IMG/VR virus record: IMGVR_UViG_3300021559_000316
Strand: one strand, 5' to 3'
DNA from: an uncultured virus (IMG/VR IMGVR_UViG_3300021559_000316)
Lineage: Duplodnaviria; Heunggongvirae; Uroviricota; Caudoviricetes
Length of the DNA stretch: 64,000 bases
Part shown: positions 3,847 to 58,613 of the stretch, piece after piece
How positions within the stretch are numbered: the first letter of the stretch is position 1
Layout: the number at the start of each line of letters is the position of its first letter
Notes under the pieces: model-generated
Told to the model about the DNA's origin: nothing
What the model saw: the letters and a program-made list of their open reading frames with translations, nothing else
Databases searched by the model: none
Made by a program: the position numbers and the translations under genes

Positions 3847-4088
3847 GGCACGCAGTAGCAGAGGAAGTTGGCGTCACCGGTGTACGCGATCGTCATGCTC
3901 GCCGGGCAGGTGTCGACGCCCGCGATGGTCTCGCACTGCCGGTAGCACGTGCCGCCGAGGCACGAGCCGGGGAACTTGGTGTCGTAGACGCAGAAGTCGA
4001 GATCCGACTGCGGGCCGCACGCCTTGGGAGCGGGCGAGACGCACGCCACGAGCACGAGCGAGACGATCAATCTGAAGGCCGGCATCAC
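3843..4088 (-). CDS. small Cys-rich lipoprotein/secreted protein
   Basis: hydrophobic N-terminus ending LVAC; multiple Cys. Confidence 0.55.
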   Translation of the reverse strand: MMPAFRLIVSLVLVACVSPAPKACGPQSDLDFCVYDTKFPGSCLGGTCYRQCETIAGVDTCPASMTIAYTGDANFLCYCVP

Positions 4089-12681: not shown

Positions 12682-12684
12682 GAT

Positions 12685-15076: not shown

Positions 15077-15225
15077 TCGATTTCGTTGGGATGCTCAGCG
15101 ACCCAGATCGCGTCCATCAGCTCGCACAGCGCGCGATCGATCTTCTCCTCCTGTGTGATCGGCATGAGCCGCGTCCTATCGCACGAGTTGCGGCAGCCGT
15201 TCAAGCGGAGCTAGAGTCGATCATC

Positions 15226-15594
15226 GTGAGCGCTTACATTCCGGATCTTCGGCGCACGAACGTCGTGCTCGTCGTCTGGGCCATGCACGGCTGCGGGCCG
15301 TGCAACACGTACCTGCCGCAGTTCATGGAGCGCGTCGAGGCGCACGCTGCCGCGGGCGCGCCGTTTCGTGTGTGGTCGCCCGGCCAGCCGATCAAGCCCG
15401 GAGAGATCCCGGTCCTGTTCTACGACGCAGCCTCCAAGGACGACGGGCTGCAAGACTTCGCCGATCGGCTCGGCGTCGCGGCGACGCCGACGACGTACAT
15501 GCTCACGCGCACGGACACGGTCAAGCTCGAAGGCGCCAAGTCACCCGACGAGATCGATCGCTTGCTGGAATCCGCGCAGCGCGCGAACCGCTAG
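15226..15594 (+). CDS. thioredoxin-fold protein
   Basis: WAMHGCGPC...LGVAATPT (cis-Pro)...LEGA. Confidence 0.75.
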   Translation: MSAYIPDLRRTNVVLVVWAMHGCGPCNTYLPQFMERVEAHAAAGAPFRVWSPGQPIKPGEIPVLFYDAASKDDGLQDFADRLGVAATPTTYMLTRTDTVKLEGAKSPDEIDRLLESAQRANR

Positions 15595-16142
15595 CAGCGA
15601 CCGGCGGCGATCGCCGTCGCGACGGCCGTGCCGACCGCGCCGAGGACCGCGAGCGCCTTGGTCACCCACTGGTGGCGCGCGACGCTCTTCTTGATCTCAC
15701 CGGTCTTGTACTCTTTCTGGACCTCGATCTCGGCTTCGGCCTGCGCACGATGGACCGAGACCTTGGCGTCGAAGGTGACGTCGTCTCGAACGGCGTCGCG
15801 CCTGGCGAGATCGACGAGGATCTGAACGTTGCCGTCGAGCCCGTCGAGCTTGCCTTCGATCCGGCCAAGCTTGCCTTCGTGGTCGCTGAGCTTGGAGATC
15901 ACGACGTCGTGCTTGTCTTCGAGCCGCGTCAGCCGCTCCTCGGGCGGGCGCGTGCTACGGAGCGACTTCAGCTCATCGCCCGCGTGCCTCCCGGTGATCT
16001 CGTCGACGTCGAACTCCCCGCTGGGGACGGCGTCGCGCTTCATCTTGGCCTTGGCTCCTTCGAGGTCGCGATCGGTTTGCGTCTGGAACCGTCTCCTACG
16101 CGGGCGATGCTCGGAAGGCGTGTCGTCGTCATCGCTCGACAT
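15591..16142 (-). CDS. coiled-coil protein with C-terminal TM helix
   Basis: heptad RLTRLE/RIEGKLD; hydrophobic tail; leaderless TAGGAT-N6-ATG. Confidence 0.7.
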   Translation of the reverse strand: MSSDDDDTPSEHRPRRRRFQTQTDRDLEGAKAKMKRDAVPSGEFDVDEITGRHAGDELKSLRSTRPPEERLTRLEDKHDVVISKLSDHEGKLGRIEGKLDGLDGNVQILVDLARRDAVRDDVTFDAKVSVHRAQAEAEIEVQKEYKTGEIKKSVARHQWVTKALAVLGAVGTAVATAIAAGRC

Positions 16143-16208
16143 CCACAGATCCTAACGCGCCTGCCGACTTCGTCGACAGGCGCAGATCTACGGGAACCTG
16201 CGACGAGA

Positions 16209-16361
16209 CTACAGGTTCGACTTCATGCAGCGGCCGAACTCCTTACCGGAGGTCGGCCCTTCGCGGAAGCACGCGCGAGCGACCGCACCGAAGTGCGACT
16301 GCCAGGCGCTCTTGCCCTTGCCGGTACGACGACGAGCTTTCCTCTTGCGACGACGCGCCAT
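16209..16361 (-). CDS. 50-aa highly basic protein (candidate DNA-condensing core protein); not in ORF track
   Basis: MARRRKRKARRRTGKGKSAWQSHF...; GAGGAG SD. Confidence 0.65.
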   Translation of the reverse strand: MARRRKRKARRRTGKGKSAWQSHFGAVARACFREGPTSGKEFGRCMKSNL

Positions 16362-16377
16362 GACGATCTTCTCCTCG

Positions 16378-16470
16378 TTAGCGCTTGATCGGCTTGACCG
16401 GCTTGACCGGTCGAACGGGCCGCGTGCAGCAGCCCGATGCGACCGGATTGGTCTGGACGTTCGCGCTCAC
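16378..16470 (-). CDS. 30-aa basic peptide with PV(R/K) repeats; not in ORF track
   Basis: MSANVQTNPVASGCCTRPVRPVKPVKPIKR; TGGTACTGT-N7-GTG leaderless promoter. Confidence 0.45.
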   Translation of the reverse strand: MSANVQTNPVASGCCTRPVRPVKPVKPIKR

Positions 16471-16505
16471 GCCCACGACAGTACCACAAGAAAAGCTTGC
16501 CTGGA

Positions 16506-17192
16506 TCAAGCAGGCTGGGCCGCGAACAGCCACCGTCCGAAGTACATCGCGCCCACCAGACCACCGATCGCGGCGAGCCCGACGAGCACGATCTCGGTGG
16601 GGGTCAGCGCGTAGCCGCTGAGGAACGAAGGCAGGCTCACGAATCCAGCGCCGTACGCGCCGTTCGCCGCTGCAACATCTATCCAGTGGTTGCCGGCTGC
16701 ACCGCTCGACGAGACGAACTCGTCCCAGTTAGCGGGCCCACGGCCGAGCGAACTCGTCGCCGCGGTGAGCCAGCTATCGAAAGCACCGAGGCCAGCGGAG
16801 AATTGCACACGCACGGCCGCCCAGAAATCGGCGGTGCCCTCGTCCCAATCGACGCCGACGGCTTGCAGCTGTGCGTGCGTGCGGGACTTGAGCGCCTTGA
16901 TGTAGTCGACGCCGCTCGACACCGCGAGCAAGCGATCGTCGGCGGATCCGCTGACGTCGCGACCGTTCTGGCAGCCGACGAGCAGCTGATCTTGCGTGAC
17001 GCCGGCCATGTTCGCGTTACCGGGATCGAGCTGGAACAGCCCGACCTCGGGGAAGCCAGCGCTCGTCGTGACGTTGCAGCGGTTGCCGCCGGACTCGCTG
17101 CGCATCCAGTCGAGCGCGTAATCGGTGGGGACCTCCCCCGAAAACTGATCTTGGATCGCGCGCCACTGCTCGACGGAATCGCTGAACGCCAT
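16506..17192 (-). CDS. membrane-anchored lytic transglycosylase/lysozyme-like protein
   Basis: ESGGN catalytic motif and GLFQ; C-terminal TM helix. Confidence 0.7.
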   Translation of the reverse strand: MAFSDSVEQWRAIQDQFSGEVPTDYALDWMRSESGGNRCNVTTSAGFPEVGLFQLDPGNANMAGVTQDQLLVGCQNGRDVSGSADDRLLAVSSGVDYIKALKSRTHAQLQAVGVDWDEGTADFWAAVRVQFSAGLGAFDSWLTAATSSLGRGPANWDEFVSSSGAAGNHWIDVAAANGAYGAGFVSLPSFLSGYALTPTEIVLVGLAAIGGLVGAMYFGRWLFAAQPA

Positions 17193-17239
17193 CGAGCAGA
17201 GCGTACCGCAAGCTCGAAGGCTTATGATAGTTTCAAGCC

Positions 17240-17746
17240 ATGGCCTGCGCGAACCAAGACGTCGCTACGATGCAGACAGCCGCCAATCGCTTCGGCACCC
17301 ACATGTTCTCCGATGCTAAGGCGATCGCCGTCGACTGCAGCGTGGGCCCCAACACGTGGGACTTGGCCATGTCGTCCCTCGTGGAGATCACGCCCGGCAC
17401 GACGGATCAGGTCGACGACGCCACCCAGGCCGCAGCGCAGATTCTCTACGACAGCATCAACTCGTACAGCGATCTGACTAACGCCGCGTCCGACGTCGCG
17501 AACCTCTTGAACAACGCCTCCGATCAGCTCGGCTTCGGCGCCGCGCCTCAGCCGCCGGTCATCCAGCCGCCACGCAGCGGCCTCAAGACAAACAGGCCAG
17601 GCGGCCTACCGCCAGGCTTTCGAGCGAAGACGGCGGCAACGAGCCTGTTTGGCTTGGGGTTGCCGGCGCCCGTGGTGTACATCGCCGGGGCCGCGCTCGG
17701 CATCGGAATCACCGCCCTGGTCGTCGCACGTCTGAAGAAGCGCTAG
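17240..17746 (+). CDS. membrane protein with degenerate peptidoglycan-binding-like motif
   Basis: IAVDCSVGPNTW resembles the PG-binding VDG.VGP.T motif; C-terminal TM + RLKKR. Confidence 0.6.
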   Translation: MACANQDVATMQTAANRFGTHMFSDAKAIAVDCSVGPNTWDLAMSSLVEITPGTTDQVDDATQAAAQILYDSINSYSDLTNAASDVANLLNNASDQLGFGAAPQPPVIQPPRSGLKTNRPGGLPPGFRAKTAATSLFGLGLPAPVVYIAGAALGIGITALVVARLKKR

Positions 17747-17752
17747 CTCACC

Positions 17753-17902
17753 GTGACCACCGTTCTCAAGAACGTCGTCAGCTTCTCGAACCTCGTCGTC
17801 GGGGTTCCGAGCAGCTTGCCGCACCTTCTGAACGTGAGTGGCATCGCCGTACAGCCCGATCTCATCGCGAAGAGCTTGGCTGGCGTGCTGAGTCGATCAT
17901 GA
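17753..17902 (+). pseudogene. 49-aa truncated duplicate of the N-terminus of 17899-19263
   Basis: MTTVLKNVVSFSNLVVGVPSSLPHLLNVSGIAVQPDLIAKS vs MTTVLKNVLAFHGLAVGVPASQPHLLNVIGVAVIPDIVAKS. Confidence 0.65.
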
Positions 17903-19263
17903 CCACCGTTCTCAAGAACGTTCTCGCTTTCCACGGGCTCGCAGTCGGAGTCCCGGCGAGCCAGCCGCATCTTTTGAACGTCATCGGGGTTGCGGTGATC
18001 CCCGACATCGTCGCCAAGAGCGTCGACGGCTTCAACATCACCGCGGACACGATCAACGTCACCGTCACGCGGCAAGCGAGTGGACCCGCCGACGTCAACA
18101 TCTACGTCGAGCACTGGCACACGATCGAAGACTCCGAGCCGCCTGGCGGGATCGGCGCTCCGCCGCTTCCGTTCGTGATCGACAACGGAGGTGGTGGCGG
18201 TGCTGCCGGACCGACCGGCCCCGCCGGTCCTGCCGGTCCGCCGGGATCAGCGGGACCGACCGGTGCGACAGGGAGCGGAGGGCCCGGCCCCCAAGGGCCC
18301 ACCGGCGCGATGGGCCCTGGTGGATCCGGCGGCCCCACTGGACCAACGGGACCGGCGGGCTCGGGTGGTGGCGCGGTAGCGCAAACGACGGATCCGATCT
18401 TCCAGACCGGCGTCCAGGGTGACGTCGTGTTCGACGGCGTCGCGACCGTGCTCGGGATGGCGCCCAACGCGAACGTGTACACGCTCACGAAGGAGTTGAT
18501 GGTCCGCAACATGACCGTGAACGCCGGTGTGCGCGTGTTCGCCGCAGGCTTCGCGATCTTCGTCTCGGGCACGCTCACCGGCGGGGGCTCGATCGACAAC
18601 GATGGCCTCGACGCGATCACGTTCAACGGCGGTCTGTCGACGCCTACGACGCCGCGTTTTTTCCGCAACGCGGCCGGCGGCGGATCAGGCAATCCCGGCG
18701 AGAGCCCCGGCGCGTCACCCTATCCGTGGTTCTCGAATGCAGCCGGTGGCGCTGGCGGCGTCGCGCCGAACGGCAACGGCCAACCGGGCACGGCGCCCGG
18801 CGGTGGTGGCGGTGGTGGCGCGACCGCGGGCGGCAACGGCGCCGCCGGTGGATCGGTCACTGCAACGGGCGCGACCGAGGCCGCCGACTACGTGCAGCTG
18901 ATCATCGGCCGGTACATCGCGACGGGATCGACATTCACGCAGGGGGCCGGTGGCGGCGCCGGCAGCACGAACGTCGGCCAAGGCGGCGGCGGTGGCGCGA
19001 GCGGTGGGTTCCTGCTCCTCGCCGCGAATCAGATCACCGGTACGCTGGCCATCCACGCGCGTGGCGGTCGCGGAGCAAACGGCGGCGTTGCGGGCGCGCC
19101 CGGTGGCGGTGGCGGCGGCGGTGGCATGACGATCGTGTTCTCCGAGTCGATCGGGCCTGGCGTCACGATCGACGCGAACGGCGGCGCTCCCGGAAACGGC
19201 AACGCCGGTGGAGGCAACGGCGGCGTGGGCGCGGCCGGCGTGGTCGCGACGTACCTGCTCTAG
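17899..19263 (+). CDS. fibre/spike-like protein: short collagen + glycine-rich C-terminal domain
   Basis: GPT/GPA triplets, then GDVVFDG..YTLT.. and GGGGG runs. Confidence 0.75.
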   Translation: MTTVLKNVLAFHGLAVGVPASQPHLLNVIGVAVIPDIVAKSVDGFNITADTINVTVTRQASGPADVNIYVEHWHTIEDSEPPGGIGAPPLPFVIDNGGGGGAAGPTGPAGPAGPPGSAGPTGATGSGGPGPQGPTGAMGPGGSGGPTGPTGPAGSGGGAVAQTTDPIFQTGVQGDVVFDGVATVLGMAPNANVYTLTKELMVRNMTVNAGVRVFAAGFAIFVSGTLTGGGSIDNDGLDAITFNGGLSTPTTPRFFRNAAGGGSGNPGESPGASPYPWFSNAAGGAGGVAPNGNGQPGTAPGGGGGGGATAGGNGAAGGSVTATGATEAADYVQLIIGRYIATGSTFTQGAGGGAGSTNVGQGGGGGASGGFLLLAANQITGTLAIHARGGRGANGGVAGAPGGGGGGGGMTIVFSESIGPGVTIDANGGAPGNGNAGGGNGGVGAAGVVATYLL

Positions 19264-19264
19264 G

Positions 19265-21394
19265 TCACACCGCGAAGTCTTCGCGCAGCGCCTTCATCAC
19301 TTTGTCGACGTCGAAGAACGCCAGGTTCGCGGTGGAATCGCTCACGCTGTAGCTCGCGACGAGCCGATTCTTGGCGTGATCGTACGCTAGCCCGGCGGCG
19401 TACTCGATGCCGCGATGCTGGAAGTAGAAGAAGTCGGACATCTTCTTGACGACGAACTCCGCGTCGAGCCACACGAAGCGATGCAAGTACGTTCGGTACT
19501 GGCCCGAGAACGTGACGTCGTGGATGAGGCAGATGTAGCCATCATCGAACGGCACGAGCTGCGAGCCGCCGCGCAGGTGCGGGTTGGCGCCTAATCGAGC
19601 CGCTTCCGAAGCGACGGCCTGACGGCTCACGACATCGAGATCTAGCACCGTCGTGGGGCACAGCGAGTAGATGATCTTCGTCGACTTGCCGGATGCAGTC
19701 TCGATGGGCATCCAGTTCTTCTGGTTGAGCAACGACCACTGGCCACGGAGCGGCGTCGCGCGAATGATCGCGTAGTCGCCACCTAGCTCTAGGAGCACGA
19801 TCTCGCGAAGCCCGAATATCGCGTACGAGAAATCGCAGACGGTCGCCGTGCAGTAGAGCTTGCCGCCCACCGTGAACAGCCGGCAGTCTTCGAAGCCGTG
19901 GACCGGGAAACTCGTTCGCGACGTGCTATCGAGATCCTTCATCGGCACGGTGCGCACGATCTCGTCGAGATCGCTCGTCAGCTCCAGCATCACGTTGTGA
20001 GTCTGGATCACGCCGTCAGGCGGTTCGTACGAGCAACCATCGATGATGCGGTAGTTGAGCGTACGCACGAGGCAGCGCCACTTCTCGCCATCGAAGTGCA
20101 CGCTCGGGTTCGCCGCAACGAACGGCTCTGCTGGCGCATACGGAAGACGGAACGTGGTGGCCCCGAACGTCTCGCTCGCGCTGCGCGCGTAGAACGAGCG
20201 GTTGTTGCGCAAGAGATCATCACCAGGCCGCGCCTTGACGGCTTTCGCAGCGAACGCTGCGCCGATCTCCCGCTCGTCGAGATAGAAAGCCGCGATCGCC
20301 GTCAGGTGTGCCGCCTTCCAGTCGTAGATGTCACGATCGACGAAGAGCAGCGCGTTCGGGGCCGGCAGCTCGGCGGCTCTCCGCGCGAACAGGAACGTCA
20401 TCGGGAGGTTGTCGGGCGCGTGATAGTAGTAGTAGTCCGCGATCGCGTAGAGCGGCTCGGCGCGCCGCTTGTCGAACGTGTGCGCGTCGAGGTACGCCTG
20501 CTGCACCTCTGGCCACGGGCGACCGAGGCGCTTCATCATGTGGCCTCGGCGAAGTCGTGCCTCGAAGGTCTCCTCGATCCAACCGCCCAACTCGATCCGT
20601 TTCTCGTACATCGCGAGCGCTTCTTCGGTGCGGCCCAAGCAATCGAGCGTCTGCGCGAGGTAGAACGCCGTGCGCGGCTCGGGCCTCGCGGCGAAGTCAG
20701 CTTCGAGAAGATCTAGATCACGCACCCAGCGAGCGCGCGTCGCTTCGAGGCTGCGTGGCGTGCGATCTTGCGACAGCACGACACCGGGCGCCTTGACCGA
20801 TGCGGTTTGCCCACCAGGGCGGCCCGAGCATTCATGGACGCGCCCGCTGTAGCGCCAGCGCGCGCTCGTGCGCATCACGAGCGGCAAGAAGTACGACAGC
20901 TCGCCGCGACGAATGTTGACGAGGTACGCCTCGTGCTCGACCTCGCCGTTCTTCAGGCGTTCGAGAAGGTGCGCACGCAGCGCATCGCCGCCGACGAGGC
21001 GATCGTCGCTATCGGGCATGATCGTGAAGATCGTGCGCTCGCCGTGTATCTCCAGCGCGCGATTGCGGCTCGTCGAGAAATCGACGAATGGATCTTCGAT
21101 GATCCGACCCGGTACGCCATCCATCGTCTGGCGGATGATCTCCTGCGTGCCGTCGGTCGATCCCGTGTCGAGGATCGTCCACTCCTCGATGAAGGGGCGA
21201 AGCGTCTGAAGCGTCGCGGCGATCCCGTGCGCCTCGTTCTTGACGATCATCACCAGGCCCAAGAGCGGCTGGCGCCCGGAGGCCGAGAGCGGTGGGGGCT
21301 CGACGGGCTTTTCGACGACTGGCAGCTCAGGAGCTTGCGCGGGCGCTACCGAAGCCGTCTTGGTTCGCGACTTCGTTCGATGCTTGGCCGACAT
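19265..21394 (-). CDS. GT2 (SunS/SPbeta-like) glycosyltransferase with TPR and C-terminal beta-propeller
   Basis: MIVKNE..DTGSTDGT..DFSTSRN..VHE; FYLAQT TPR; NPS, GFEDCRL, QKNWMP, RGGSQ, IEYAAGL, SYSV. Confidence 0.85.
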   Translation of the reverse strand: MSAKHRTKSRTKTASVAPAQAPELPVVEKPVEPPPLSASGRQPLLGLVMIVKNEAHGIAATLQTLRPFIEEWTILDTGSTDGTQEIIRQTMDGVPGRIIEDPFVDFSTSRNRALEIHGERTIFTIMPDSDDRLVGGDALRAHLLERLKNGEVEHEAYLVNIRRGELSYFLPLVMRTSARWRYSGRVHECSGRPGGQTASVKAPGVVLSQDRTPRSLEATRARWVRDLDLLEADFAARPEPRTAFYLAQTLDCLGRTEEALAMYEKRIELGGWIEETFEARLRRGHMMKRLGRPWPEVQQAYLDAHTFDKRRAEPLYAIADYYYYHAPDNLPMTFLFARRAAELPAPNALLFVDRDIYDWKAAHLTAIAAFYLDEREIGAAFAAKAVKARPGDDLLRNNRSFYARSASETFGATTFRLPYAPAEPFVAANPSVHFDGEKWRCLVRTLNYRIIDGCSYEPPDGVIQTHNVMLELTSDLDEIVRTVPMKDLDSTSRTSFPVHGFEDCRLFTVGGKLYCTATVCDFSYAIFGLREIVLLELGGDYAIIRATPLRGQWSLLNQKNWMPIETASGKSTKIIYSLCPTTVLDLDVVSRQAVASEAARLGANPHLRGGSQLVPFDDGYICLIHDVTFSGQYRTYLHRFVWLDAEFVVKKMSDFFYFQHRGIEYAAGLAYDHAKNRLVASYSVSDSTANLAFFDVDKVMKALREDFAV

Positions 21395-21424
21395 CGAACA
21401 CGTACGTATCACAGCGGTACGGCA

Positions 21425-21655
21425 TCAAGACGTCTTGGTGACGATCGCACGTACGACGCTCGCGGTCGCCGCATCCGGCCCACCGGCGGCGATGGTCGCG
21501 TTGAGCTGCGTGATCGCGCGCGTCATGAGGTCAGCCGAGTCAGGCGACGGTGACGCCGGCTGCGCGTGGCATACGGACGGAGCGCGACCACTGCCGCACA
21601 AGCACGTCGTGATCGCGTGGCTCGTCCGCTTCCTACGGTCCTCGACCGAACGCAC
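21425..21655 (-). CDS. small SEC-C-like Zn-motif protein
   Basis: CLCGSGRAPSVCH; GTGATATACT-N6-GTG promoter. Confidence 0.55.
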   Translation of the reverse strand: MRSVEDRRKRTSHAITTCLCGSGRAPSVCHAQPASPSPDSADLMTRAITQLNATIAAGGPDAATASVVRAIVTKTS

Positions 21656-21674
21656 GAACCCAGTATATCACGGC

Positions 21675-22499
21675 TCAGCTGGCCGGCGCTCCCTGCGTCG
21701 GCACCGCGAGCGACGGCTCGGGAAGGTCGAGCATGTCGGGCTTGATCGCCTTGAGCCGCACGACCCAGTCGACGATCGTGTTCCAGCTCTCGTTGAACAT
21801 GCGCTGCTGGACGTCGGCGGACCGCGCGTTCATGTCCGTCATGACCGTGTGATCGATCTTGCCGTCGAAGTCGCACTTCACGTTGTAGTGATCGAGGTGG
21901 TTGACCTCGCGGAACTTCTTGAACAGGTAGAAGAAGGCTTCCGCTGGATAGAAGCGCCGATGCGTCGGATCTTGGAACGCGCGGTTGTTGCGCAAGCACG
22001 GCACGACGACCGTCATCCAAGCCCCGGGCGCGAGGATCCGATGACACTCGTCGAAGAAGGCGAAGAACAGATCCCTTGCGCCGGGCGTGCCGACCGGGAC
22101 CGCGTTGCCGTGCTCGTCGACCTCGATCGCCGACAGGTGTTCGACGAAATGGCTGCAGTGCAGCTCGACGACGCTCCCATCGGCCCACGGCCACGGGAAC
22201 CTCATCAGGTTGACCTCGTGCTTGACCGACTTCCGCGCCTTCTCGTACTCGGTCAGGCGCTTCTGCTCTTCTTCCGTGCGATCGGGCTTGTCGCGAAGCT
22301 GTGCGATCTGCGCGTCGAGGTACACCCCGATCCCAGGTCGGTCGACGCCATCGAAGCCGACCTTGCAGTTCTGCCCACACGCGAGATCGAGCTTGAGCGT
22401 CGGCGTAGGCCGAGCCAGCTCGGGCTTCTTGCCGTCGATCGGCTTGCGCGTGGTCTTGGCCGCCAGCTTGCGTCGCTTCTTCGACTGCTTTCCGCTCAT
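21675..22499 (-). CDS. class I SAM methyltransferase
   Basis: KLDLACG..GFDGVD..PWPWADGSV..SHFVEH..ECHRILAPG..DPTH. Confidence 0.8.
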   Translation of the reverse strand: MSGKQSKKRRKLAAKTTRKPIDGKKPELARPTPTLKLDLACGQNCKVGFDGVDRPGIGVYLDAQIAQLRDKPDRTEEEQKRLTEYEKARKSVKHEVNLMRFPWPWADGSVVELHCSHFVEHLSAIEVDEHGNAVPVGTPGARDLFFAFFDECHRILAPGAWMTVVVPCLRNNRAFQDPTHRRFYPAEAFFYLFKKFREVNHLDHYNVKCDFDGKIDHTVMTDMNARSADVQQRMFNESWNTIVDWVVRLKAIKPDMLDLPEPSLAVPTQGAPAS

Positions 22500-34772: not shown

Positions 34773-35155
34773 TGCGTCAGAATTCGATGCCCGGGATGCG
34801 CCGTGTGATCATCGAAAGCCCATACGCGGGCGACCGCGAGAAGAACTTGCGCTACCTGCAAGCGTGCATCGCCGACTGTCTCAAGCGCGGCGACGCACCG
34901 TTCGCGTCGCACGGGCTCTACCCGGGCGCGCTCGACGACAACATCCCCGAAGAGCGCCAGCTCGGGATCGAAGCCGGCTTCACGTGGCGCGACGCCGCAC
35001 ACGCCACGATCGTGTACAAAGATCTCGGCGTCACACGCGGCATGCTCCTCGGCATCGAGCACGCCGAGAAGCTGAAGCACGTGATCGAATACAGAACGCT
35101 CGGCGGCGAGTGGTCGCGCTCGGAAACTAGCTCTTCGTCGGCGGAATCCACTTGA
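34772..35155 (+). CDS. nucleoside deoxyribosyltransferase-like phage protein (DUF4406/DUF7768-type)
   Basis: VIIESPYAGD..YL..C..D..RG.APFASH.LY..VY.DLGVT.GM. Confidence 0.65.
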   Translation: MRQNSMPGMRRVIIESPYAGDREKNLRYLQACIADCLKRGDAPFASHGLYPGALDDNIPEERQLGIEAGFTWRDAAHATIVYKDLGVTRGMLLGIEHAEKLKHVIEYRTLGGEWSRSETSSSSAEST

Positions 35156-35906
35156 CGCGATCTTCGAGCGGACAACGACCGAAACCTTGAGGCGTTCCTA
35201 GCGCTTCGTCGAGCGGCCAGCCGTAACGTAGGACACGACTGGAGACTAGCTCACGACGAACACCAGCAAGATCAGCCCATTCACCGAGCGTGCGTGATTC
35301 GCCGTTCAGCTCGTAGAGGCGCGTCTTGCGCGTGTTGCGGTTCTGCTCTTCAGGTGTCGCCCAACGCAAATTTCCTGGCACGTAGCCTTTGTCGTTGTCT
35401 ACGCGATCGAGCGAGAACATACGGGACGGCTTCTCTCCGATCGCGGCGATGACATCACGTCGAAACGCCGCGTACGACTGCGCCCACACCGGATCCATCG
35501 TGATGCCCCTACCACCGTAGCTCGGATAGGAAACGTGCTCTGGGTTCAAGCAACGCTGCTTGATCTGCGTCCAGGTTCGATACAGCACAGTGAACTTCGT
35601 CCCAGCTTCGCGTGTGCCACGAGCATCTCCGTGCTTCGCTGTTTCGGCATTGCGCTCAGCTAGCTCCTCGCTGTGCGCGCAGCCGCACGACGTCGTGTTG
35701 CCGCTCTTCAGATGGTTGACCATCACATCTACGTAGAGCCCGCACGCGCATCGACACGTGATCATGCGTTGCTGGTGCTTGGTCTTGGCGCCAGTGAATG
35801 CCACCACGGTGAGCCGCCCGAAGGTCAAGCCGATCAGCTCGGTCCACGCGGGTGGGATGGGCTGTGGAGTGCCGAGGTCGGAGCGAGCATTACGAGATCT
35901 CGTCAT
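35127..35906 (-). CDS. HNH homing endonuclease
   Basis: FGRLTV..CRCACG..SCGC..QRCLNP..YGGRGI..SLDRVDNDKGY.PGNLRWAT..QNRN; TATGGT-N6-ATG. Confidence 0.85.
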   Translation of the reverse strand: MTRSRNARSDLGTPQPIPPAWTELIGLTFGRLTVVAFTGAKTKHQQRMITCRCACGLYVDVMVNHLKSGNTTSCGCAHSEELAERNAETAKHGDARGTREAGTKFTVLYRTWTQIKQRCLNPEHVSYPSYGGRGITMDPVWAQSYAAFRRDVIAAIGEKPSRMFSLDRVDNDKGYVPGNLRWATPEEQNRNTRKTRLYELNGESRTLGEWADLAGVRRELVSSRVLRYGWPLDEALGTPQGFGRCPLEDRVKWIPPTKS

Positions 35907-35948
35907 GCTCGGACCATACCTTAACGGTACGACAACAAGACCATGCCT

Positions 35949-35984
35949 AAAAAACAAAAAGGCCCGTTCCGAAGAACGAGCCTT
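35949..35984 (-). terminator. rho-independent terminator after the candidate major capsid gene
   Basis: AAGGCTCGTTC-TTCG-GAACGGGCCTT followed by TTTGTTTTT. Confidence 0.85.
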
Positions 35985-36015
35985 GACGACGTTCGCGTAA
36001 GTACGCGAAACTACC

Positions 36016-36732
36016 TCACACCACGGACCGTTTGAGCAGGCCGTACAGGTACACCTTGACGTCGGCGAACGTCAGCGGCGACGCGATCAGGCCGTCCGAC
36101 GCCGGCTGGTTGATCACGATCGGCGCCTCGGGCTGGAACGACATCTTGAACCCGAGGTTCTCACGGAGGTCGATCGGCAGCACCATCGCGTTGCGATCGC
36201 GCGGCGACGGCACGCCGTTCTGCGCCAGCTCGAACGCCGAGTTGGTCGAGAACACCCAGTAGCCGTGGCCCTGCGGGTAGTCCTGGGTCACGCCGTACGT
36301 GTAGACCTTGCCGTTGTACGTGAACTCCAGGTACGTCACGCGGTCGAAGTTGAACAGCGTGCGCAAGGTCGGCGGATCCGACAGCGCGCCCGCGCCGTCG
36401 GCGAGCGTCGGCGACGTCTGGCCCGTCGGCGGGCGCATCGCGCGCACCATCTGCACGCCGATGCCGTAGACGTACATCTCCCACGACTGCGGGAGACCCG
36501 AGTCACCGTTGCGCGGCACGTTCGTGTCGACGCGGGTCGACGCGCGCGTTCCGCCGGGGATCGGCTGGCTGCGGCCGGCGGTGAACGCCTCGACCGGCGA
36601 GGTCTGGCCGTTCACGATCTGAACGGTCGAGTAGAGCTTGTCGTCGATCCAGTCGCTGATCGCGACCGTCTGCCCGTTGGGCAGCGTGATCGTCGTGGTT
36701 CCTGGGGCAACACCAACGGTTCCGTTCGCCAT
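36016..36732 (-). CDS. candidate major capsid protein, single vertical jelly-roll type
   Basis: LYST..F..T..DTN..G.LP..M.V.GI..LEF..K.Y..YP.G.G..NG.P..I.L.E..F..V.LYG pattern recalled from SJR MCPs; strongly biased codons, strong SD, own terminator. Confidence 0.6.
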   Translation of the reverse strand: MANGTVGVAPGTTTITLPNGQTVAISDWIDDKLYSTVQIVNGQTSPVEAFTAGRSQPIPGGTRASTRVDTNVPRNGDSGLPQSWEMYVYGIGVQMVRAMRPPTGQTSPTLADGAGALSDPPTLRTLFNFDRVTYLEFTYNGKVYTYGVTQDYPQGHGYWVFSTNSAFELAQNGVPSPRDRNAMVLPIDLRENLGFKMSFQPEAPIVINQPASDGLIASPLTFADVKVYLYGLLKRSVV

Positions 36733-36818
36733 CTTCCTTCTCCTGAAAAGAGTTTCGTTGCAGCTCGACCGTGGGCATCGTTTCCCGGCGATCGAATCGG
36801 TCGCGCAACACGCGACCT

Positions 36819-36890
36819 TGGTGAGCAGCCCGGAATCGAACCGTTCCTCTCGTCGGCTACAGACGAGTGCCCTGCCAAGGGCCTCTGCTC
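36819..36890 (-). ncRNA. degenerate tRNA-like cloverleaf in the capsid-gene leader
   Basis: GAGCAG/CTGCTC-ACCA acceptor, GCCC-TTGGCA-GGGC D arm, CTCGT/ACGAG arm, CGG-TTCGATT-CCG T arm. Confidence 0.65.
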
Positions 36891-36929
36891 ACGACGAGAT
36901 CATTGATCTCGTCGACTAGTTGTCAGGGA

Positions 36930-37679
36930 TCAGCCGCGACCGCCGCCGAGCAGCGTCGCGCCGTACGCCGCCGACAGACCGTGGATCTGCGGGCCGCCGA
37001 GCAGCGAGACCTGCTGCGACTGCGCCGTCGGGTTGCCGAGCAGGTTCACCGGCGACCGCGCGTTGCCGAGCTGCGTGCCGGCGAACGCCGGACCGTGAAC
37101 GCCCGGGATCGTGCCGACCGACTGCGGCTGCGGCTGCATCGTGTGCAGCCCGAGGCCGTTCAGGTAGTGGCCGCTCGCCTGGCGCCGCATGCCGAGCCCG
37201 CCGTTGAGCGCAGAGATCTTCGGGATCCCCAGGCCGTTGAGCGCGTGGATCTTCGCGATGCCGACGCCCGACGTGCCCGGAGCGGGCAGCGTGCCGCTGG
37301 CCGCCGCGACCGTCTGCGCCGCCGCAGCCGCAGTCGCGACCGGCAGCTGCACCGTGCCGAGGAGCTTCTTCTCCAGCCACGGCAAGCCCTCGGCGAGGAA
37401 CGCGCCGACGAGCGCGCCGTACGACGCGTGGCGGGCACGCGACGGACCGCTGAACCACATGATCCCTGCCGCGCCGAGACCTGCGAGCAGGCCCCAGAAC
37501 TCGCGGTTGACCACCTGGCCGGTGAACGCGTTGACGTGGCCGATCAGGATCGACGTCCCGCCCGCGACGCCACCGCCGATGAGCGCGCCCGTGATCGGCG
37601 ACATGCCCGGGTTCTGACCGAACTCGTCGAGTCCGAGCAGCGTGGGCTGGCCCAACAGAGAATGACGCTTGCGACCCAT
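36930..37679 (-). CDS. virion membrane protein with repeated LNGLG motifs
   Basis: three N-terminal hydrophobic helices; LNGLGI, LNGGLG, LNGLGL; AGGAG SD. Confidence 0.7.
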   Translation of the reverse strand: MGRKRHSLLGQPTLLGLDEFGQNPGMSPITGALIGGGVAGGTSILIGHVNAFTGQVVNREFWGLLAGLGAAGIMWFSGPSRARHASYGALVGAFLAEGLPWLEKKLLGTVQLPVATAAAAAQTVAAASGTLPAPGTSGVGIAKIHALNGLGIPKISALNGGLGMRRQASGHYLNGLGLHTMQPQPQSVGTIPGVHGPAFAGTQLGNARSPVNLLGNPTAQSQQVSLLGGPQIHGLSAAYGATLLGGGRG

Positions 37680-37690
37680 GACGTGTCTCC

Positions 37691-37861
37691 TTACTTGGTC
37701 TTGATCGGGTTAGAACACTTGCCTCGGAACTTGATGCCGCTGCGACTTTCGCTTCGAGAGACCTTGCAGACCGAGACGCCCCTGCCGGTCCTCTTGTTGA
37801 GAATGCACACGCACTCGCCGAGCTTCAGATCGGCAGTCGGACCCCTCTTTACCCGTTCCAC
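37691..37861 (-). CDS. small basic Cys-containing protein
   Basis: ..GECVCILNKRTGRGVSVCK..SGIKFRGKC..; fills the gap between two genes; start uncertain. Confidence 0.4.
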   Translation of the reverse strand: MERVKRGPTADLKLGECVCILNKRTGRGVSVCKVSRSESRSGIKFRGKCSNPIKTK

Positions 37862-38340
37862 CGCATGTTCCAGAACTGGTTCCACGACTGGCCCGCGTGC
37901 GCGCGGGCGTAGCCCTGCTCCATGCCTCCCGACATGAGCAGCGACGCCATCGCCGCCTTGTTGACCTGCACCGGCTCGATCTGGAGACCGATCTGCGGGT
38001 AGGCCACACCGATCATGTGTGCGTCGCCGAGGCCACCAAAGCCCTCGTGGAAGTTGTAGCCGGCGCCGGCCATGCCCTTGCGAGCACGCCACGCCTTGAA
38101 GCGCAGCCACCACTTCTGGAGCAGGCCCATGTTGTTCGCGCCGAACGCGGCGCCCAGGCCCGACATGCCGACAGACGGCGGCACCGACATGTCGATCGGG
38201 TACTGCGTGAACGCCGCAGCGACGTCCTCTACGTCCTGGTTCGGATCGTAGTTCATCGTCGACGTCAGAACGCCCGTGCGATACACGCGATCGGGCCGCA
38301 CGTAGTGAGAACCTCCGCCGTGCCTCGTGATCGTCTGCAT
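37849..38340 (-). CDS. putative virion protein with MSGLG/FGGLG motifs
   Basis: TTGACA-N18-TACCAC-N6-ATG promoter; biased codons. Confidence 0.7.
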   Translation of the reverse strand: MQTITRHGGGSHYVRPDRVYRTGVLTSTMNYDPNQDVEDVAAAFTQYPIDMSVPPSVGMSGLGAAFGANNMGLLQKWWLRFKAWRARKGMAGAGYNFHEGFGGLGDAHMIGVAYPQIGLQIEPVQVNKAAMASLLMSGGMEQGYARAHAGQSWNQFWNMRWNG

Positions 38341-38465
38341 ACTCTTGTGGTACCTCGGCTAGTCGTAACTTGTCAATATCACTACAAATTTTGTCACTAG
38401 TGGCCAAGTGATCGAGGCTAACGTATCGACGGATCAAAGCTCTCGAACATGTACTGTCCAGACTT

Positions 38466-39050
38466 TTGATCCCAAAAGGTGAGAGAAAGAAGAGAGTGAA
38501 GCCGTCGGTCTACTTCGTCGCCAGCTTCGATTTGACGAGGGTCAAGATCGGCAAGACCACAGATCTTCGAATTCGCACCAGAGATCTACAGTGCATGTCA
38601 CCTGATCCGGTTCTTCTCGTCGCCGAGATCGATGGATACACGCACGTTGAGCGCTGGCTCCACGAGCGCTTCGAAGCCGAACGGCTGCACGGCGAGTGGT
38701 TCTTCGTCAGCGATGCGATCGCGTCGTTGATCCTCGCGATTCAATCGTCGGGAAGAAGTTTCGTTTCAGAGCTGTGCCCAGATGCGCTCGCAAAGGACGA
38801 GATCACTGTCGCAGTCGACTACGCCCACCTCACGCTGGACATGGTGCAAGAGGCTCGTGGGAGGTTCGAGCACGGTGAAGCGTTCGCGTCGATCATCAAA
38901 CGCTTCCCGACCGTCAGGCAGCTGGATCTTGGTCGAGCGATCTACGGAGTCACCTGGAAGCAGCTACCGCTTCTCGAAGGCCTACCCAAGCGAACGCAAC
39001 GCAGATTTACGTCCATCCTTCGCCCGAAACGCCTACGAAAAGTCGCTTGA
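38466..39050 (+). CDS. T5orf172/GIY-YIG-like nuclease-domain protein
   Basis: VYF..VKIGKT..R..LQC.SP..ERWLH.RF..RLHGEWF. Confidence 0.8.
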   Translation: MIPKGERKKRVKPSVYFVASFDLTRVKIGKTTDLRIRTRDLQCMSPDPVLLVAEIDGYTHVERWLHERFEAERLHGEWFFVSDAIASLILAIQSSGRSFVSELCPDALAKDEITVAVDYAHLTLDMVQEARGRFEHGEAFASIIKRFPTVRQLDLGRAIYGVTWKQLPLLEGLPKRTQRRFTSILRPKRLRKVA

Positions 39051-39880: not shown

Positions 39881-40903
39881 TCACGGAGCGGCGGCGCTAC
39901 CGGAGCGCTTGAAGAACGGCAAGCCCTCCGAGCGCAGTCGCTTGATCCGCGGCCACAAGATGATCCCACCGACGACCACCGCGAGCCCGAGGCCGATCCA
40001 TAGCCCGTACCTCGTGATGAACAAGCCGAACCCGAGCGCGCCCTCGATGATCTGCTCGCCGGCCTTGATGACGTTGCCGCCGATCTGGATCGTCTTCTTG
40101 ACGACGTCCTCGGCGACGCCGAGAACCGTCTTGGCCACACCGATCACCGCGTTGAACAGCTCGGAGATCGGCGCCCACATCGACGGGATGTTCTGGATGA
40201 GGCACGCGGCGTCGCTCGCCGCGTTCATCGCGCTGGAGACATCCTGCAGCGACTTGATCACCCAGTCCTTGAGCAGCGGCGCCTGCACGAGCGACGCGGC
40301 TTGCTGCGATTGTGCAATCGCGGTGACGGCGGCTTCGGAGTAGAGCGCGCCTTGGAGTGAATTGCGGGCGATGTCGTCGAGGCCCTGGTTCAGGTTCTCG
40401 GGGATTCCCGACTGCGCGATGAACGCCGCGAGCCCGAGGCAGCTGGAGTCCGTCACGCCGCAGTTGGCCAGCAGCTCGTCGGAGCTGATGCTCGGCGAAC
40501 GACGCTGGAGGAGCGACACGTCCGGCAGATTCAAGCTCGAAGCGATCGCCTGCTGTTGCTGGTTGATGAGATCGAGCGCCTTCTGGTTCACCGCCGTCAC
40601 GACGCTGACGAGCTTGTTCACGTCGTCGGTCGTGTAGGTTCCCGTCGGCTTCCAGGTCTTGTTCAGATCGTCGATCGCGCCGTCGAACGGCGCCGTCTGC
40701 GCTTGCGCCGACGCGAGGCAGTCGCCCGCGGCGTCACCGAAGCCGCTCAGCGGTACACCGCCGCGCATCACGCCGAACGGCTGCAGCGTCGACTGATCGG
40801 TGCCCGGAGAGAAGTGCAGATCGAACGGCGTCAACGCCGGGTTCTGTGCGGGATCGGAGTTGAACTGCCAGTTTGGAACGATCCCGAGCGACATCGTCGG
40901 CAT
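39881..40903 (-). CDS. helical virion membrane protein with LSGFG motif
   Basis: LSGFGD after a ~55-aa pro-like segment; C-terminal TM + basic tail. Confidence 0.75.
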   Translation of the reverse strand: MPTMSLGIVPNWQFNSDPAQNPALTPFDLHFSPGTDQSTLQPFGVMRGGVPLSGFGDAAGDCLASAQAQTAPFDGAIDDLNKTWKPTGTYTTDDVNKLVSVVTAVNQKALDLINQQQQAIASSLNLPDVSLLQRRSPSISSDELLANCGVTDSSCLGLAAFIAQSGIPENLNQGLDDIARNSLQGALYSEAAVTAIAQSQQAASLVQAPLLKDWVIKSLQDVSSAMNAASDAACLIQNIPSMWAPISELFNAVIGVAKTVLGVAEDVVKKTIQIGGNVIKAGEQIIEGALGFGLFITRYGLWIGLGLAVVVGGIILWPRIKRLRSEGLPFFKRSGSAAAP

Positions 40904-56560: not shown

Positions 56561-56910
56561 TTGGCCTCCGCCTTCCGGATCGGCCGTATGCCCATGTTCA
56601 TCAGCGTGGTGATGAGGCCGACCCGATCGAATTGCAGCTCGTGGTACATGCGCGCATGCGTCTCGCCGTCGATCTTCGGTAGCGCATCGACGAATTCGTT
56701 CCACTGCCGCTCGTAGTCGTCGGGGGCGAGGTCGGTGTACACCACGTCCCACGTGAACACGCGCTCGCCGTTGCGAACGATCGCGACCACCAAGCGATCT
56801 GGCGGGACGACGGCGGTGTACAGCTCCTCCGCCTGGAACCCGAGCCTGCGTAGTGCTTGGTGCGCCGCGTACGACGCTCGAACCGTCGGATGGATGTCGT
56901 CGAACTTCAT
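56557..56910 (-). CDS. hypothetical protein
   Basis: MKFDDIHP...; ATGA coupling, GAGGT SD. Confidence 0.6.
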   Translation of the reverse strand: MKFDDIHPTVRASYAAHQALRRLGFQAEELYTAVVPPDRLVVAIVRNGERVFTWDVVYTDLAPDDYERQWNEFVDALPKIDGETHARMYHELQFDRVGLITTLMNMGIRPIRKAEAK

Positions 56911-58613
56911 GTGACCTCGAAGAGCGTCTCGCTGGCCTTGACCAATCCACGGCTGGGCTCGGTCACCAGCTCCTTGGCGGCGAGGCGCGATAGGTACGCG
57001 TCTCGCGTCGAGCGCTTGAAGCCCGTCTGCTCGTCGATCGCGGATCGATCGACGGCTTGCGGGTATGCGTCCACGAGCACCGCGAGCACGTGCCATTCGC
57101 CAGGTGGCAGCTCGTTACGCCAGAACTCGCGGAGCGCCTCGCCGGTCGGTAGCGGTTGCGCGTCCGGCATCGAATCTCGCCCGGTGAAGGTCACGAGAAC
57201 GCGATCACCAGCCTCCTGAACGAGACCCTTCTCGCGCAGCCGTGCGATGTACGCGTCGCGTGTCGAGCGCTTGTAGCCAGTGAGCACCGTGAGCTGGCGC
57301 TTCTGCAACCCGCCTTCGTACTGGATCAGCGCACGAAGCACCGCGGCCTCACCAACGGGCAGGTTTCTACCGATGACGACGGGGACCGCGTGGCCGTTGG
57401 TGAACGCCCGGATCGGCTTCTTGGCCGGCGGCGTGCTCATCGTGTGGTAGGTCTTGTCGTTGGTCAGATCCTTGAGCGAGACCTGTAGCGGCTTGCGATC
57501 CTCGATCGCTGCGGCAGCGCGCGTGACCTCCGCGAACGATCGAACACCGATCGCCGCCGACGTGAACGAATCGACCGTGCTCGACAGCTTGTCGGCGAGC
57601 GTGCCAGCCTTGCCGGCGAGCATGTCGAGTTGCTTCATCTGCTGATCGCTGATGACGCGCTTCTCGATGGTCTTGATCTTCGGCTCGGGCTGCGTCTTCT
57701 TCGCGGTACGTAGCTCGCCTTCGAGCTGACGAACCTTGGTTCGCAGCTCGCCGACGGTCTTGGCCTCTTCCTCGGCCTCGTGTGGCAGGTCAGCGAGCTG
57801 CGCGAGGATCTTCTTCACGCGATCGCGCGGCGGCGTCGGCGCCATCGCACGCTGTCCGGCCTTGGGATGCGTCGTGTGAACGTCGCCGACCTTGATGTGG
57901 GTGACGACGTCGCACAGCGCCGGCCCGAACGCGTAGAACTCGCCGGGCTTGAGCGTGCGCAGCGACAGCAGGTGCTCGCGATCGGTGAAGCCCAGCTCCG
58001 CGGCGGCGCGCTTCATGTCGATGTCGAGCCCGCAGCGGCCGATCAGCTTGTTGTTCGCCTCGGCAGCGGCGTCCTTGTGCAGCTTCGCGATGCGCTGGGT
58101 CGCGAGCACGCCGCAGAAGCCGCGCTTGCGGCCTCGCGTCATGAGGTCGATCACCGCGGAGGCGCTCTCGTTCTGTCCGGCCTCCGGGCAGAACATGTGG
58201 GCCTCGTCGATGATGACGAGGAGCGGGTGCCACAGCTCGCGTGGCGCGTTGACGAGCGATTCGAGAAACAGTCGCACGAACCGCGTGCGCTGGATCCCCA
58301 GCTCGTAGATGTCGACGATCGCCGAGACGTTCAGCTCCAAGAGCCGCCGTGCGAGGAGCGTCGCGCTCTTGACGTCGGCCGGGCAATCGCCGCCCTTCTG
58401 GCCTGCGAGCACGTAGTCGTACTTCTCGCGCAGCGTGTGGAACTCGCCCTCGACGTCGATGACGATCTGCGGAACGCTCGCGTACGTCTGTTCGAGGAGC
58501 CGGCGGATCGCCCAGCTCTTGCCGGCACCGCTGTTGGCCTGCACGAGCAGCCGCGACTCGATCAGCTTGTCGACGTCGATCGGTTGGTTGGGTCCGAGCT
58601 TGGGCTGCATCAT
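56907..58613 (-). CDS. HerA/FtsK-superfamily ATPase with two C-terminal winged-helix repeats
   Basis: ANSGAGKS, IDVEGEF, IIDEAH, RGRKRG..ATQR; LP.GE..VL..TG.KRSTRDAY..RL twice. Confidence 0.85.
   Translation of the reverse strand: MMQPKLGPNQPIDVDKLIESRLLVQANSGAGKSWAIRRLLEQTYASVPQIVIDVEGEFHTLREKYDYVLAGQKGGDCPADVKSATLLARRLLELNVSAIVDIYELGIQRTRFVRLFLESLVNAPRELWHPLLVIIDEAHMFCPEAGQNESASAVIDLMTRGRKRGFCGVLATQRIAKLHKDAAAEANNKLIGRCGLDIDMKRAAAELGFTDREHLLSLRTLKPGEFYAFGPALCDVVTHIKVGDVHTTHPKAGQRAMAPTPPRDRVKKILAQLADLPHEAEEEAKTVGELRTKVRQLEGELRTAKKTQPEPKIKTIEKRVISDQQMKQLDMLAGKAGTLADKLSSTVDSFTSAAIGVRSFAEVTRAAAAIEDRKPLQVSLKDLTNDKTYHTMSTPPAKKPIRAFTNGHAVPVVIGRNLPVGEAAVLRALIQYEGGLQKRQLTVLTGYKRSTRDAYIARLREKGLVQEAGDRVLVTFTGRDSMPDAQPLPTGEALREFWRNELPPGEWHVLAVLVDAYPQAVDRSAIDEQTGFKRSTRDAYLSRLAAKELVTEPSRGLVKASETLFEVT

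Follow-up and report, generated by a model that had tools for sequence, protein, structure and literature searches.

The sequence analyzed here, hereafter the window, is a 64,000 nt stretch from an uncultured virus (IMG/VR record IMGVR_UViG_3300021559_000316; Caudoviricetes), a segment of a tailed-phage genome with 64% GC and nearly all genes on the minus strand. Two of these genes, one for a protein of 249 amino acids (aa; 36930–37679) and the next for a protein of 238 aa (36016–36732), are both read from the minus strand and are separated by a spacer of 197 nt, which hosts a transfer RNA (tRNA)-like cloverleaf at 36819–36891, again on the minus strand. This element is tRNA-shaped and tRNA-derived but is no normal tRNA: its fold is maintained by covariation in related phages, its anticodon arm is noncanonical and variable, and a hairpin stands on each side of it, a layout that recurs in the relatives. 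What the element may do for the virus, possibly as a processing signal in the late structural transcript, is weighed after the evidence on its fold, conservation, and surroundings.

Regarding its fold, the copy of the window, in the minus-strand reading, has the acceptor strand GAGCAG, which pairs with CTGCTC, the latter followed by ACCA; the D arm (GCCC-TTGGCA-GGGC) has a 4-bp stem and a loop with GG, a CTCGT/ACGAG stem encloses the 9-nt loop CTGTAGCCG, the variable region has 4–5 nt, and the T loop GGTTCGATTCC (loop TTCGATT) closes a stem with only three good pairs. Apart from the variable region, these features had been described in an earlier note on this DNA, and they are present on the minus strand where it placed them, with homologous elements at the same position in relatives. 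The ends vary slightly with the method, being 36820–36891 for ARAGORN, 36821–36891 for the Rfam tRNA model RF00005, and 36819–36890 for the covariance model R1 described below; covariation sustains the same fold. As for the acceptor, the note had counted 6 bp; the six pairs exist, and T36891 also pairs with A36822 and extends the stem to 7 bp, as both ARAGORN and Infernal read it. The acceptor of the window then has seven perfect pairs, and the T stem three standard pairs and two A·G mismatches, and a drawing with an 8-bp acceptor and a 3-bp T stem can also be made. The 3-bp T stem and the 9-nt loop of the note were borne out, the loop being alternatively of 7 nt on a 6-bp anticodon stem if C36862 pairs with G36854. 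The elbow nucleotides (G18 and G19 of the D loop, T54-psi55-C56 of the T loop) occur in the window and in all six distinct members of the family. Finally, the 3′ end of the element lies 86 nt from the ATG at 36732, close to the 85 nt or so first estimated.

ARAGORN, run on the whole 64 kb, made a single call, at 36820–36891, as a tRNA-Leu with the anticodon tag at position 33. With RF00005, Infernal aligned the element end to end with 25.2 bits (E 0.0041 on 401 nt), the alignment showing an overlong anticodon loop and two nonstandard T-stem pairs (the A·G mismatches); the gathering score of this family is 29, and no match passed in an Rfam scan of the entire window at the gathering score. By comparison, 46 full-length ordinary tRNAs from three phage tRNA arrays had RF00005 scores of 39.9–73.5 bits. 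Since 25.2 bits is below both the gathering score and the range of ordinary tRNAs, the copy of the window is not a normal tRNA, in line with what the note had anticipated; its closest relative, the copy of locus L018, passes at 32.3 bits. The 126-nt region that includes both flanking hairpins has a folding energy of −60.1 kcal/mol (z = −4.0), and none of 200 shuffled sequences was as stable. The exact 21-nt 3′ half of the element had no match in IMG/VR.

Relatives were collected with the 238-aa protein, which led to 96 loci: 16 from IMG/VR, 77 from metagenomes, and 3 from metagenome-assembled genomes (these loci carry L numbers here). ARAGORN made a syntenic tRNA call in only two of the 96, L021 and L022, which are identical in this region and were typed as Met-CAT. 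By direct inspection, the T-loop motif was found 102–123 nt before the ATG in the window and in 8 of the 96 loci. The element is full length in L018, L020, L019, L003, L021, and L022; that of L023 is cut at its 5′ side by the contig end, and that of L026 is reduced to the acceptor stem, the T arm, and ACCA. Except for L026, the carriers all fall in the subclade whose proteins are at least 84% identical to that of the window. L017 (91% protein identity), L083, and L086 lack the element, and L026 is the only one among the more distant relatives to have it.

RF00005 recognized L018 above its gathering score and gave no match in L003, L019, L020, and L021 at E ≤ 10. The covariance model R1, seeded on L021 and L003, found the element at the syntenic place in L018 (56 bits), the window (27.9 bits), L019 (26.0 bits), and L020 (25.5 bits), the next-best match in the window having 13.1 bits (E 1.6). 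However, R1 is generic, as it gives unrelated ordinary tRNAs 19–32 bits, so that the 27.9 bits of the window prove nothing alone, and family membership rests on synteny and on the shared flanks. The record of L003 is 77.5 kb long with terminal repeats (CheckV completeness 73%), and it contains exactly one copy of the element and no RF00005 match at E ≤ 1; together with the single ARAGORN call in the 64-kb window, this indicates that these phages have no tRNA repertoire and possess only this object. A scan of IMG/VR with a pattern made of the T arm and CCAAG returned 60 matches, of which 49 were ordinary ARAGORN tRNAs (20 of them tRNA-Ala(tgc)); the other 11 were generic or partial to R1, apart from the contig of L003 itself, and added no new family member.

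Some by-products of these searches can be reported here. L007 has a weak R1 match at 4422–4498 on the plus strand (17.6 bits, E 0.089), with the same sequence in L042 (2922–2998); it lies about 700 nt downstream of the homologous gene, and L007 has no element in its leader. The pattern scan also pointed to unrelated contigs: L111 has two adjacent ARAGORN tRNAs at 1159–1302 (plus strand) with anticodon cta (Pyl label, amber-suppressor type), while L110 (575–665, minus strand) and L148 (764–851, plus strand) have ARAGORN tRNAs with a 4-base (tcga) and a 2-base anticodon, respectively.

The conservation of the fold was assessed on an alignment of seven rows, six of them distinct, covering 21 pairs and 120 cells. 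In this alignment, the paired fraction of the cells is 90.0%, a level that none of 500 shuffles attained (75.8 ± 2.2%) and that falls to 37–48% if the partners are slid by 1–3 columns. Both sides have changed in 10 of the 21 pairs, against 3.9 ± 1.4 expected (0 of 500). These double-sided changes occur in the acceptor (5 of 7 pairs), in the D stem (2 of 4, with 100% of the cells paired), and in the anticodon stem (3 of 5), and in none of the five pairs of the T stem, because its inner three pairs are invariant and the outer two are often unpaired. None of the six distinct members lacks the GG of the D loop or the GGTTCGA of the T arm. Identity between members is 56–81% for the element, 57–88% for the rest of the spacer, and 78–96% for the adjacent coding sequence; pairing is thus kept while the sequence drifts. 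The earlier note had proposed covariation in homologous leaders as a check, and the pairings of the acceptor, D, and anticodon stems are indeed retained by compensatory change.

The anticodon arm is different in every member: it has from 17 to about 40 nt, or it is deleted. In the window it can be drawn as 6 bp with a 7-nt loop or as 5 bp with a 9-nt loop, while it has 7 bp in L018, 6 bp in L021, and 8 bp in L023, each with a 5-nt loop; the stem of L020 is interrupted and carries a 5-nt loop, the arm of L003 is irregular and 23 nt long, L019 has an insertion of about 40 nt, and in L026 the arm is missing. A decoder loop of the form Y32-U33-NNN-R37 was found in no member, and the 7-nt loop of the window has G33 and C37. 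Bacterial tRNA-Leu and tRNA-Tyr are of class II, with a long variable arm, and the 4–5 nt of the window do not make such an arm. As for codon usage, CTA accounts for 61 of 14,326 codons in 50 open reading frames (ORFs) and for none in the downstream 238-aa gene, which does not decide the decoding question. Judging from these loops, the element very probably does not decode, and the earlier idea of a nondecoding tRNA mimic gains from the six distinct full-length members, whose noncanonical arms differ in length and sequence while the pairing of the body is kept. Two further suggestions of the same source fared less well: conservation within the element is lowest in the loop, which speaks against a decoy for anticodon nucleases, and a decaying tRNA-Tyr (GTA) would be expected to have a class II body, at odds with the short variable region and with the other loops of the relatives. 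Attempts to trace the isotype of the ancestor ended with a phage tRNA-Ala as the best full-length match of L018 (73.5% identity, E = 2, not significant) and with partial matches only for the window.

The element does not stand alone in the spacer. Hairpin A (36892–36914, minus strand) has 9–10 bp and a 3-nt loop and ends 0–1 nt before the element; RNAfold forms nine of its ten pairs because G36892 can extend the acceptor stem instead. Counterparts of unrelated sequence end 2–4 nt before the element in L018, L020, L019, L003, and L021, while the upstream hairpin of L026 is only weak; overall, a hairpin A is found 0–4 nt upstream of the element in six of the seven copies that have a 5′ flank. 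On the other side, hairpin B (36799–36817, minus strand), with 7–8 bp and a TGTT-type loop, begins 1 nt after CCA-A, and in all eight copies it comes 0–1 nt after a CCAAG or CGAAG motif. The 10-bp and 7-bp hairpins of the earlier note thus exist, the former with nine pairs in the RNAfold structure, and their arrangement around the element is repeated in relatives.

By a script definition, 26 of 81 distinct leaders have hairpin-B-like structures with covarying stems, whether or not they also carry the tRNA-like element. The stem has 6–9 bp and the loop is GTGTT or TGTTN, about 60–90 nt before the ATG; the stems differ and are yet complementary (GGTCGCG, GCCACG, GGCACC, GGTGCG, GGGTGC, GGCTCG), and further examples are in L017, L094, L001, L024/25, L091, L038, L032, L036, L058, L087, L048, and others. 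Hairpin B is itself a conserved structured motif, independent of the tRNA-like element. As for the junction between the two, RCCA ends six of the eight distinct elements, and C[CG]AA precedes hairpin B in all four element-bearing leaders caught by the script versus 2 of 15 element-free leaders; this pattern ties the CCA to the element rather than to hairpin B.

Closer to the gene, a second leader hairpin at about 36764–36796 (minus strand; approximate coordinates, from the RNAfold structure of the leader and the leader alignment) is near-identical in L018 and replaces the GGGG-ACGW-CCCC hairpin of other relatives. The latter, a GGGG(G)-ACGW-CCCC(C) tetraloop hairpin, was detected by script in 35 of 81 distinct leaders, about 36–62 nt before the ATG, and is absent from the window and L018; among its carriers are L003, L017, L019–L023, L026, L001, L004, L009, and L012, and it may be an operator or a nuclease site. 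This hairpin and hairpin B are far more widespread than the element, so that the element with its hairpin A is an accessory module on an already structured leader. In L083, L001, L086, and L009, the place of the element is taken by a long hairpin (8–9 bp, 12–14-nt loop) with a G-rich stretch behind it; in L083 and L001, CGAAG then leads up to hairpin B. The arrangement represents either another module or what is left, at a late stage, of the tRNA-like element. The ribosome-binding site of the 238-aa gene, AGGAGAAGGA, is at 36735–36744 (minus strand), with AGGAGAA conserved across the aligned leaders. Finally, a match to a sigma-70-type promoter was noted at 36899–36926 (minus strand; CTGACA, 16 nt, AATGAT; 9 of 12 positions), with one site found against a mean of 0.0 (standard deviation 0.2) in 50 shuffles, for a consensus that may not be that of the host. 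Its predicted start nearly coincides with the 5′ end of the element; only the first hexamer recurs, in L003 alone, and the full site is not conserved, so that this putative promoter is to be taken as a lead only.

The explanation favored here, which comes near to an even chance of being correct, is that of a domesticated tRNA acting as an RNase P/RNase Z-type processing signal, by analogy with the t-elements of plant mitochondria. The acceptor helix, the elbow, and the RCCA end are the features recognized by RNase P, RNase Z, and the CCA-adding enzyme. These are conserved in the element while the decoding part is free to vary, which makes a processing signal the simplest reading. In this scheme, a phage-borne class I tRNA gene would have lost decoding and retained what processing enzymes recognize: the acceptor stem together with the elbow of the D and T loops and, in most copies, the RCCA end, the last of these reported to pair with the RNase P RNA (PMC11143913). 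The element would be transcribed together with the minus-strand structural genes, whose transcript it would punctuate. A cut by RNase P at its 5′ end would leave the upstream mRNA, that of the 249-aa protein, with hairpin A at its terminus as a block to 3′ exonucleases; a second cut, made at the discriminator/CCA or shortly beyond it by an enzyme of the RNase Z or RNase E kind, would let the downstream mRNA of the 238-aa protein start almost at once with hairpin B, a 5′-terminal stem-loop of the kind that slows 5′-end-dependent decay. The neighboring mRNAs could in this way gain different lifetimes, and a tRNA-like RNA of about 72–76 nt would be released. The broader claim, that a tailed phage turned a tRNA gene into operon punctuation, with host RNase P and a 3′ nuclease cutting its late structural transcript, is offered tentatively, as possible and short of probable.

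Several points weigh against this proposal. The model that fitted the alignment to the structure was itself made from two of the rows, which inflates the pairing counts; the family is small, with six distinct full-length copies, all of them related; and the outer two pairs of the T stem are often mismatched, with pair 88:102 unpaired in four of the six. The ends of L018 and L020 are RCGA and not RCCA, and the element is dispensable, as L017, with 91% protein identity, L083, and L086 do without it. The RNA data consist of short contigs from three soil metatranscriptome runs, which are unable to define ends. The protein of RNase P is reported to contact leader positions −8 to −3 (PMC11143913), and hairpin A leaves only 0–4 unpaired nucleotides of leader, so that cleavage could be hindered. 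If transcription started at the sigma-70-like site, at the 5′ end of the element, the 5′ cut would be unnecessary in the window and the two genes would be uncoupled.

The main rival of a processing signal is a tRNA gene in neutral decay, one that lodged between two genes, lost its function, and is eroding with no present role; this is rather unlikely. In its favor, absence from the close relatives L017 and L083 and the stub of L026 are what erosion would leave, the element changes at a rate close to that of the remaining spacer, mismatches affect the T stem and acceptor positions 6–7, the RF00005 scores are low or absent (25.2 bits for the window and 32.3 for L018, against 39.9–73.5 for ordinary tRNAs), and the long hairpin with CGAAG found at the same spot in L083, L001, L086, and L009 could be its late remnant. 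Nevertheless, at 19–44% divergence the stems of a decaying gene should break, yet 90% of the cells are paired and 10 of 21 pairs show double-sided changes; the GG and the T-loop elbow are invariant in all six members, the anticodon hairpin is still a hairpin as its length changes, and what the stub of L026 has kept is precisely the acceptor/T minihelix with ACCA.

A different class of factors would also recognize the conserved half of the tRNA, which would fit an RNA working in trans. Once released, and maybe made from a promoter of its own, the tRNA-shaped RNA would serve as a decoy or sponge, drawing off host factors that bind the acceptor/elbow half; among these might be the CCA-adding enzyme, modification enzymes, or defense toxins that act on the 3′ ends of tRNAs by modifying or cutting them. 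The promoter-like site is positioned to start at the 5′ end of the element, each genome has a single copy, placed in a late region of high expression, and phage tRNAs are reported to counter tRNA-targeting defenses (PMC10264068). Against a role in trans, the promoter match is not conserved beyond its first hexamer, shared with L003 only; anticodon nucleases usually target the anticodon loop, which is not conserved here, making that class of decoy unlikely; and the flanking genes, being without family assignment, reveal no partner. Such a role is altogether improbable. Even less credit is due to a working, if unusual, tRNA with an expanded or shifted anticodon loop, reading UAG (Leu, codon CUA) or GUA (Tyr), which is very improbable. 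ARAGORN does call the window copy, and L021 and L022 as Met-CAT, L018 is above the Rfam cutoff, and CTA is rare but used, phages often carrying tRNAs for rare codons; on the other hand, the loop has 9 nt, or 7 nt with a G at position 33, bacterial Leu and Tyr tRNAs need a long variable arm in place of the 4–5 nt of the window, close relatives with the same body have wholly different noncanonical loops, some of 5 nt, the T stem has only three good pairs, the 25.2 bits are far under the range of ordinary phage tRNAs, and the downstream gene has no CTA codons.

As for known systems, the closest functional analogues of a processing signal of this kind are the plant-mitochondrial t-elements, which carry the GGTTCRANYCC motif and mark mRNA ends (Forner et al. 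2007, PMC1920247). The t-elements and the phage element are both noncanonical cloverleaves with this T-arm motif (here GGTTCGATTCC) in the leaders or trailers of mRNAs, and both are proposed to direct the cuts of RNase P and RNase Z that make mRNA ends; in contrast, t-elements are from an organelle and their RNA ends were mapped experimentally, while the element is from a phage, has no sequence homology to them, and is known from its sequence. In the window, a cloverleaf of the GGTTCRANYCC type does lie 86 nt upstream of an ATG and between two same-strand genes. The likeness is one of mechanism, by analogy, and not of family membership.

RNase P substrates other than tRNA are on record for phages and operons: PMC11143913 lists the M3 RNA of phi80, the precursor of the C4 antisense RNA of P1/P7, and the mRNA of T4 gene 32, and states that RNase P also cuts intergenic regions of polycistronic mRNAs. 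As these examples are presented there, host RNase P acts at acceptor-stem-like helices with an RCCA end. Ordinary phage tRNAs resemble the element in their cloverleaf, in the elbow formed by GG and T-psi-C, and in an encoded CCA; they differ in having 7-nt loops with a readable anticodon and in being mostly in arrays, while the element is alone between two structural genes. The non-tRNA substrates of phages and operons are not known to be full cloverleaves with a D-loop/T-loop elbow, and this sets them apart.

Another comparison is with eukaryotic nuclear RNAs. In MALAT1 mascRNA and the MEN-beta tRNA-like RNA, the fold lies within a longer transcript that is cut by RNase P and RNase Z; cutting defines the end of the long RNA and frees a small tRNA-like RNA. 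These RNAs have no homology to the element, and RF01684 gave no match on the element region at E ≤ 10. YrlA-type Y RNAs are tRNA mimics bound by Ro60/Rsr, also found in phages, and that of M. smegmatis is cut by RNase P and receives CCA (PMC4201824). YrlA and the element are both tRNA-derived and nondecoding, with D and T arms, while YrlA adjoins the Ro60 gene and is coupled to a module that binds Ro60; RF02553 had no match on 36650–37050 at E ≤ 10, and no Ro60-like protein was found among 48 proteins compared with PHROGs and 10 with Pfam, the Pfam coverage of the window being incomplete. A transfer-messenger RNA (tmRNA), or its tRNA-like domain, was also discarded, with no ARAGORN tmRNA in the window and no RF00023 match at E ≤ 10, and so was an allo-tRNA or tRNA-Sec-like molecule, which has a 12-bp acceptor domain (8/4 or 9/3) and a long variable arm (PMC7609411), compared with a variable region of only 4–5 nt in the window; RF01852 had no match on the region. 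A phage attachment site for integration (attP) was ruled out by the location in a block of structural genes and by the full cloverleaf, which is not a 3′ tRNA fragment; no integrase search was made. The literature search, with subscription journals outside its scope, found no description of a conserved nondecoding tRNA-like element between phage structural genes, and PMC10690425 mentions phage candidates for tRNA-like RNAs in general terms only.

The two genes that border the spacer have no Pfam or PHROG family for their products, even at E ≤ 1. The upstream 249-aa gene, taken from the ORF list, has a conserved C-terminus that stops 38 nt before the element, and tblastn places a homologue (28–52% identity) in synteny in 14 of the 16 IMG/VR loci. 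The downstream 238-aa gene codes for a virion-module protein with a predicted beta-sandwich, and the earlier note had labeled it as the major capsid protein. This label found no support, given the absence of a family match and a model with no HK97-like counterpart. The AlphaFold2 model, built on a 64-sequence alignment, is almost wholly beta-strand (predicted local distance difference test score 76, predicted template modeling score 0.71); the profile of the alignment had no sequence match in the PDB, Foldseek with the model gave nothing at E ≤ 0.001 in the PDB or BFVD, and the best VIA-align Z, 6.1, was for single-jelly-roll capsid and cement proteins and falls in the range of chance arrangements for this tool. 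No HK97-type capsid protein is among the 50 structural matches listed. An atlas search placed the protein in unnamed viral clusters only, and GenBank phages had neither a DNA match to 36000–38500 nor a protein match to the 238-aa product. Its relatives have 48–92% identity, and the G+C fraction at third codon positions is 0.94, joint second in the ORF list after the 0.95 of 3843–4088; the high conservation, this composition, and the strong AGGAGAA ribosome-binding site fit an abundant virion protein. The 340-aa protein at 39881–40903 is a possible capsid candidate, for which the atlas search yielded nothing usable.

Contigs of soil metatranscriptomes from three libraries and three studies match parts of both genes (36164–36806 and 37456–37618) with 100% identity, so that this phage or a near-identical one is present in RNA libraries, DNA carry-over being possible. 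The contigs reach into the leader to 36806 in one library and to 36773 in another, and 36807–36923 is outside them; being short, they show no ends, strand, or level, and the gap carries no inference.

Elsewhere, the window encodes terminase large-subunit pieces, one with an HNH domain, a helicase, an endolysin, a collagen-like tail fiber, a free-standing HNH endonuclease, and a block of sugar-modifying enzymes. The HNH endonuclease gene (35127–35957, minus strand; phrog_374, E 4.7e-57) is directly downstream of the 238-aa gene, and such a placement beside a highly conserved gene is typical of homing endonucleases. Terminase similarity is spread over two minus-strand ORFs, 59646–62081 and 56907–58613, the former coding for 811 aa with the HNH domain at residues 424–468; this may reflect an intein/endonuclease insertion or a split terminase. 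Nucleotide-sugar epimerases, glycosyltransferases, and methyltransferases are gathered in one block at 10404–22499 (minus strand), which might act on DNA or on the cell surface.

In conclusion, the small size of the family and its confinement to one clade of uncultured soil phages keep the scope of the claim modest. If the processing-signal explanation is true, the element would be the bacterial-virus counterpart of mitochondrial tRNA punctuation and of plant t-elements, and it would mean that phages reuse the tRNA-maturation enzymes of their hosts to tune the relative amounts of neighboring structural proteins; differential mRNA stability within phage late operons is still poorly understood. 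The succession of hairpin, tRNA-like fold, and hairpin is a compact natural cassette of the kind used in synthetic biology to separate transcripts. Phage annotation handles such elements as odd tRNAs or as noise, and a role in processing would explain the persistence of “pseudo-tRNAs” in phage genomes.

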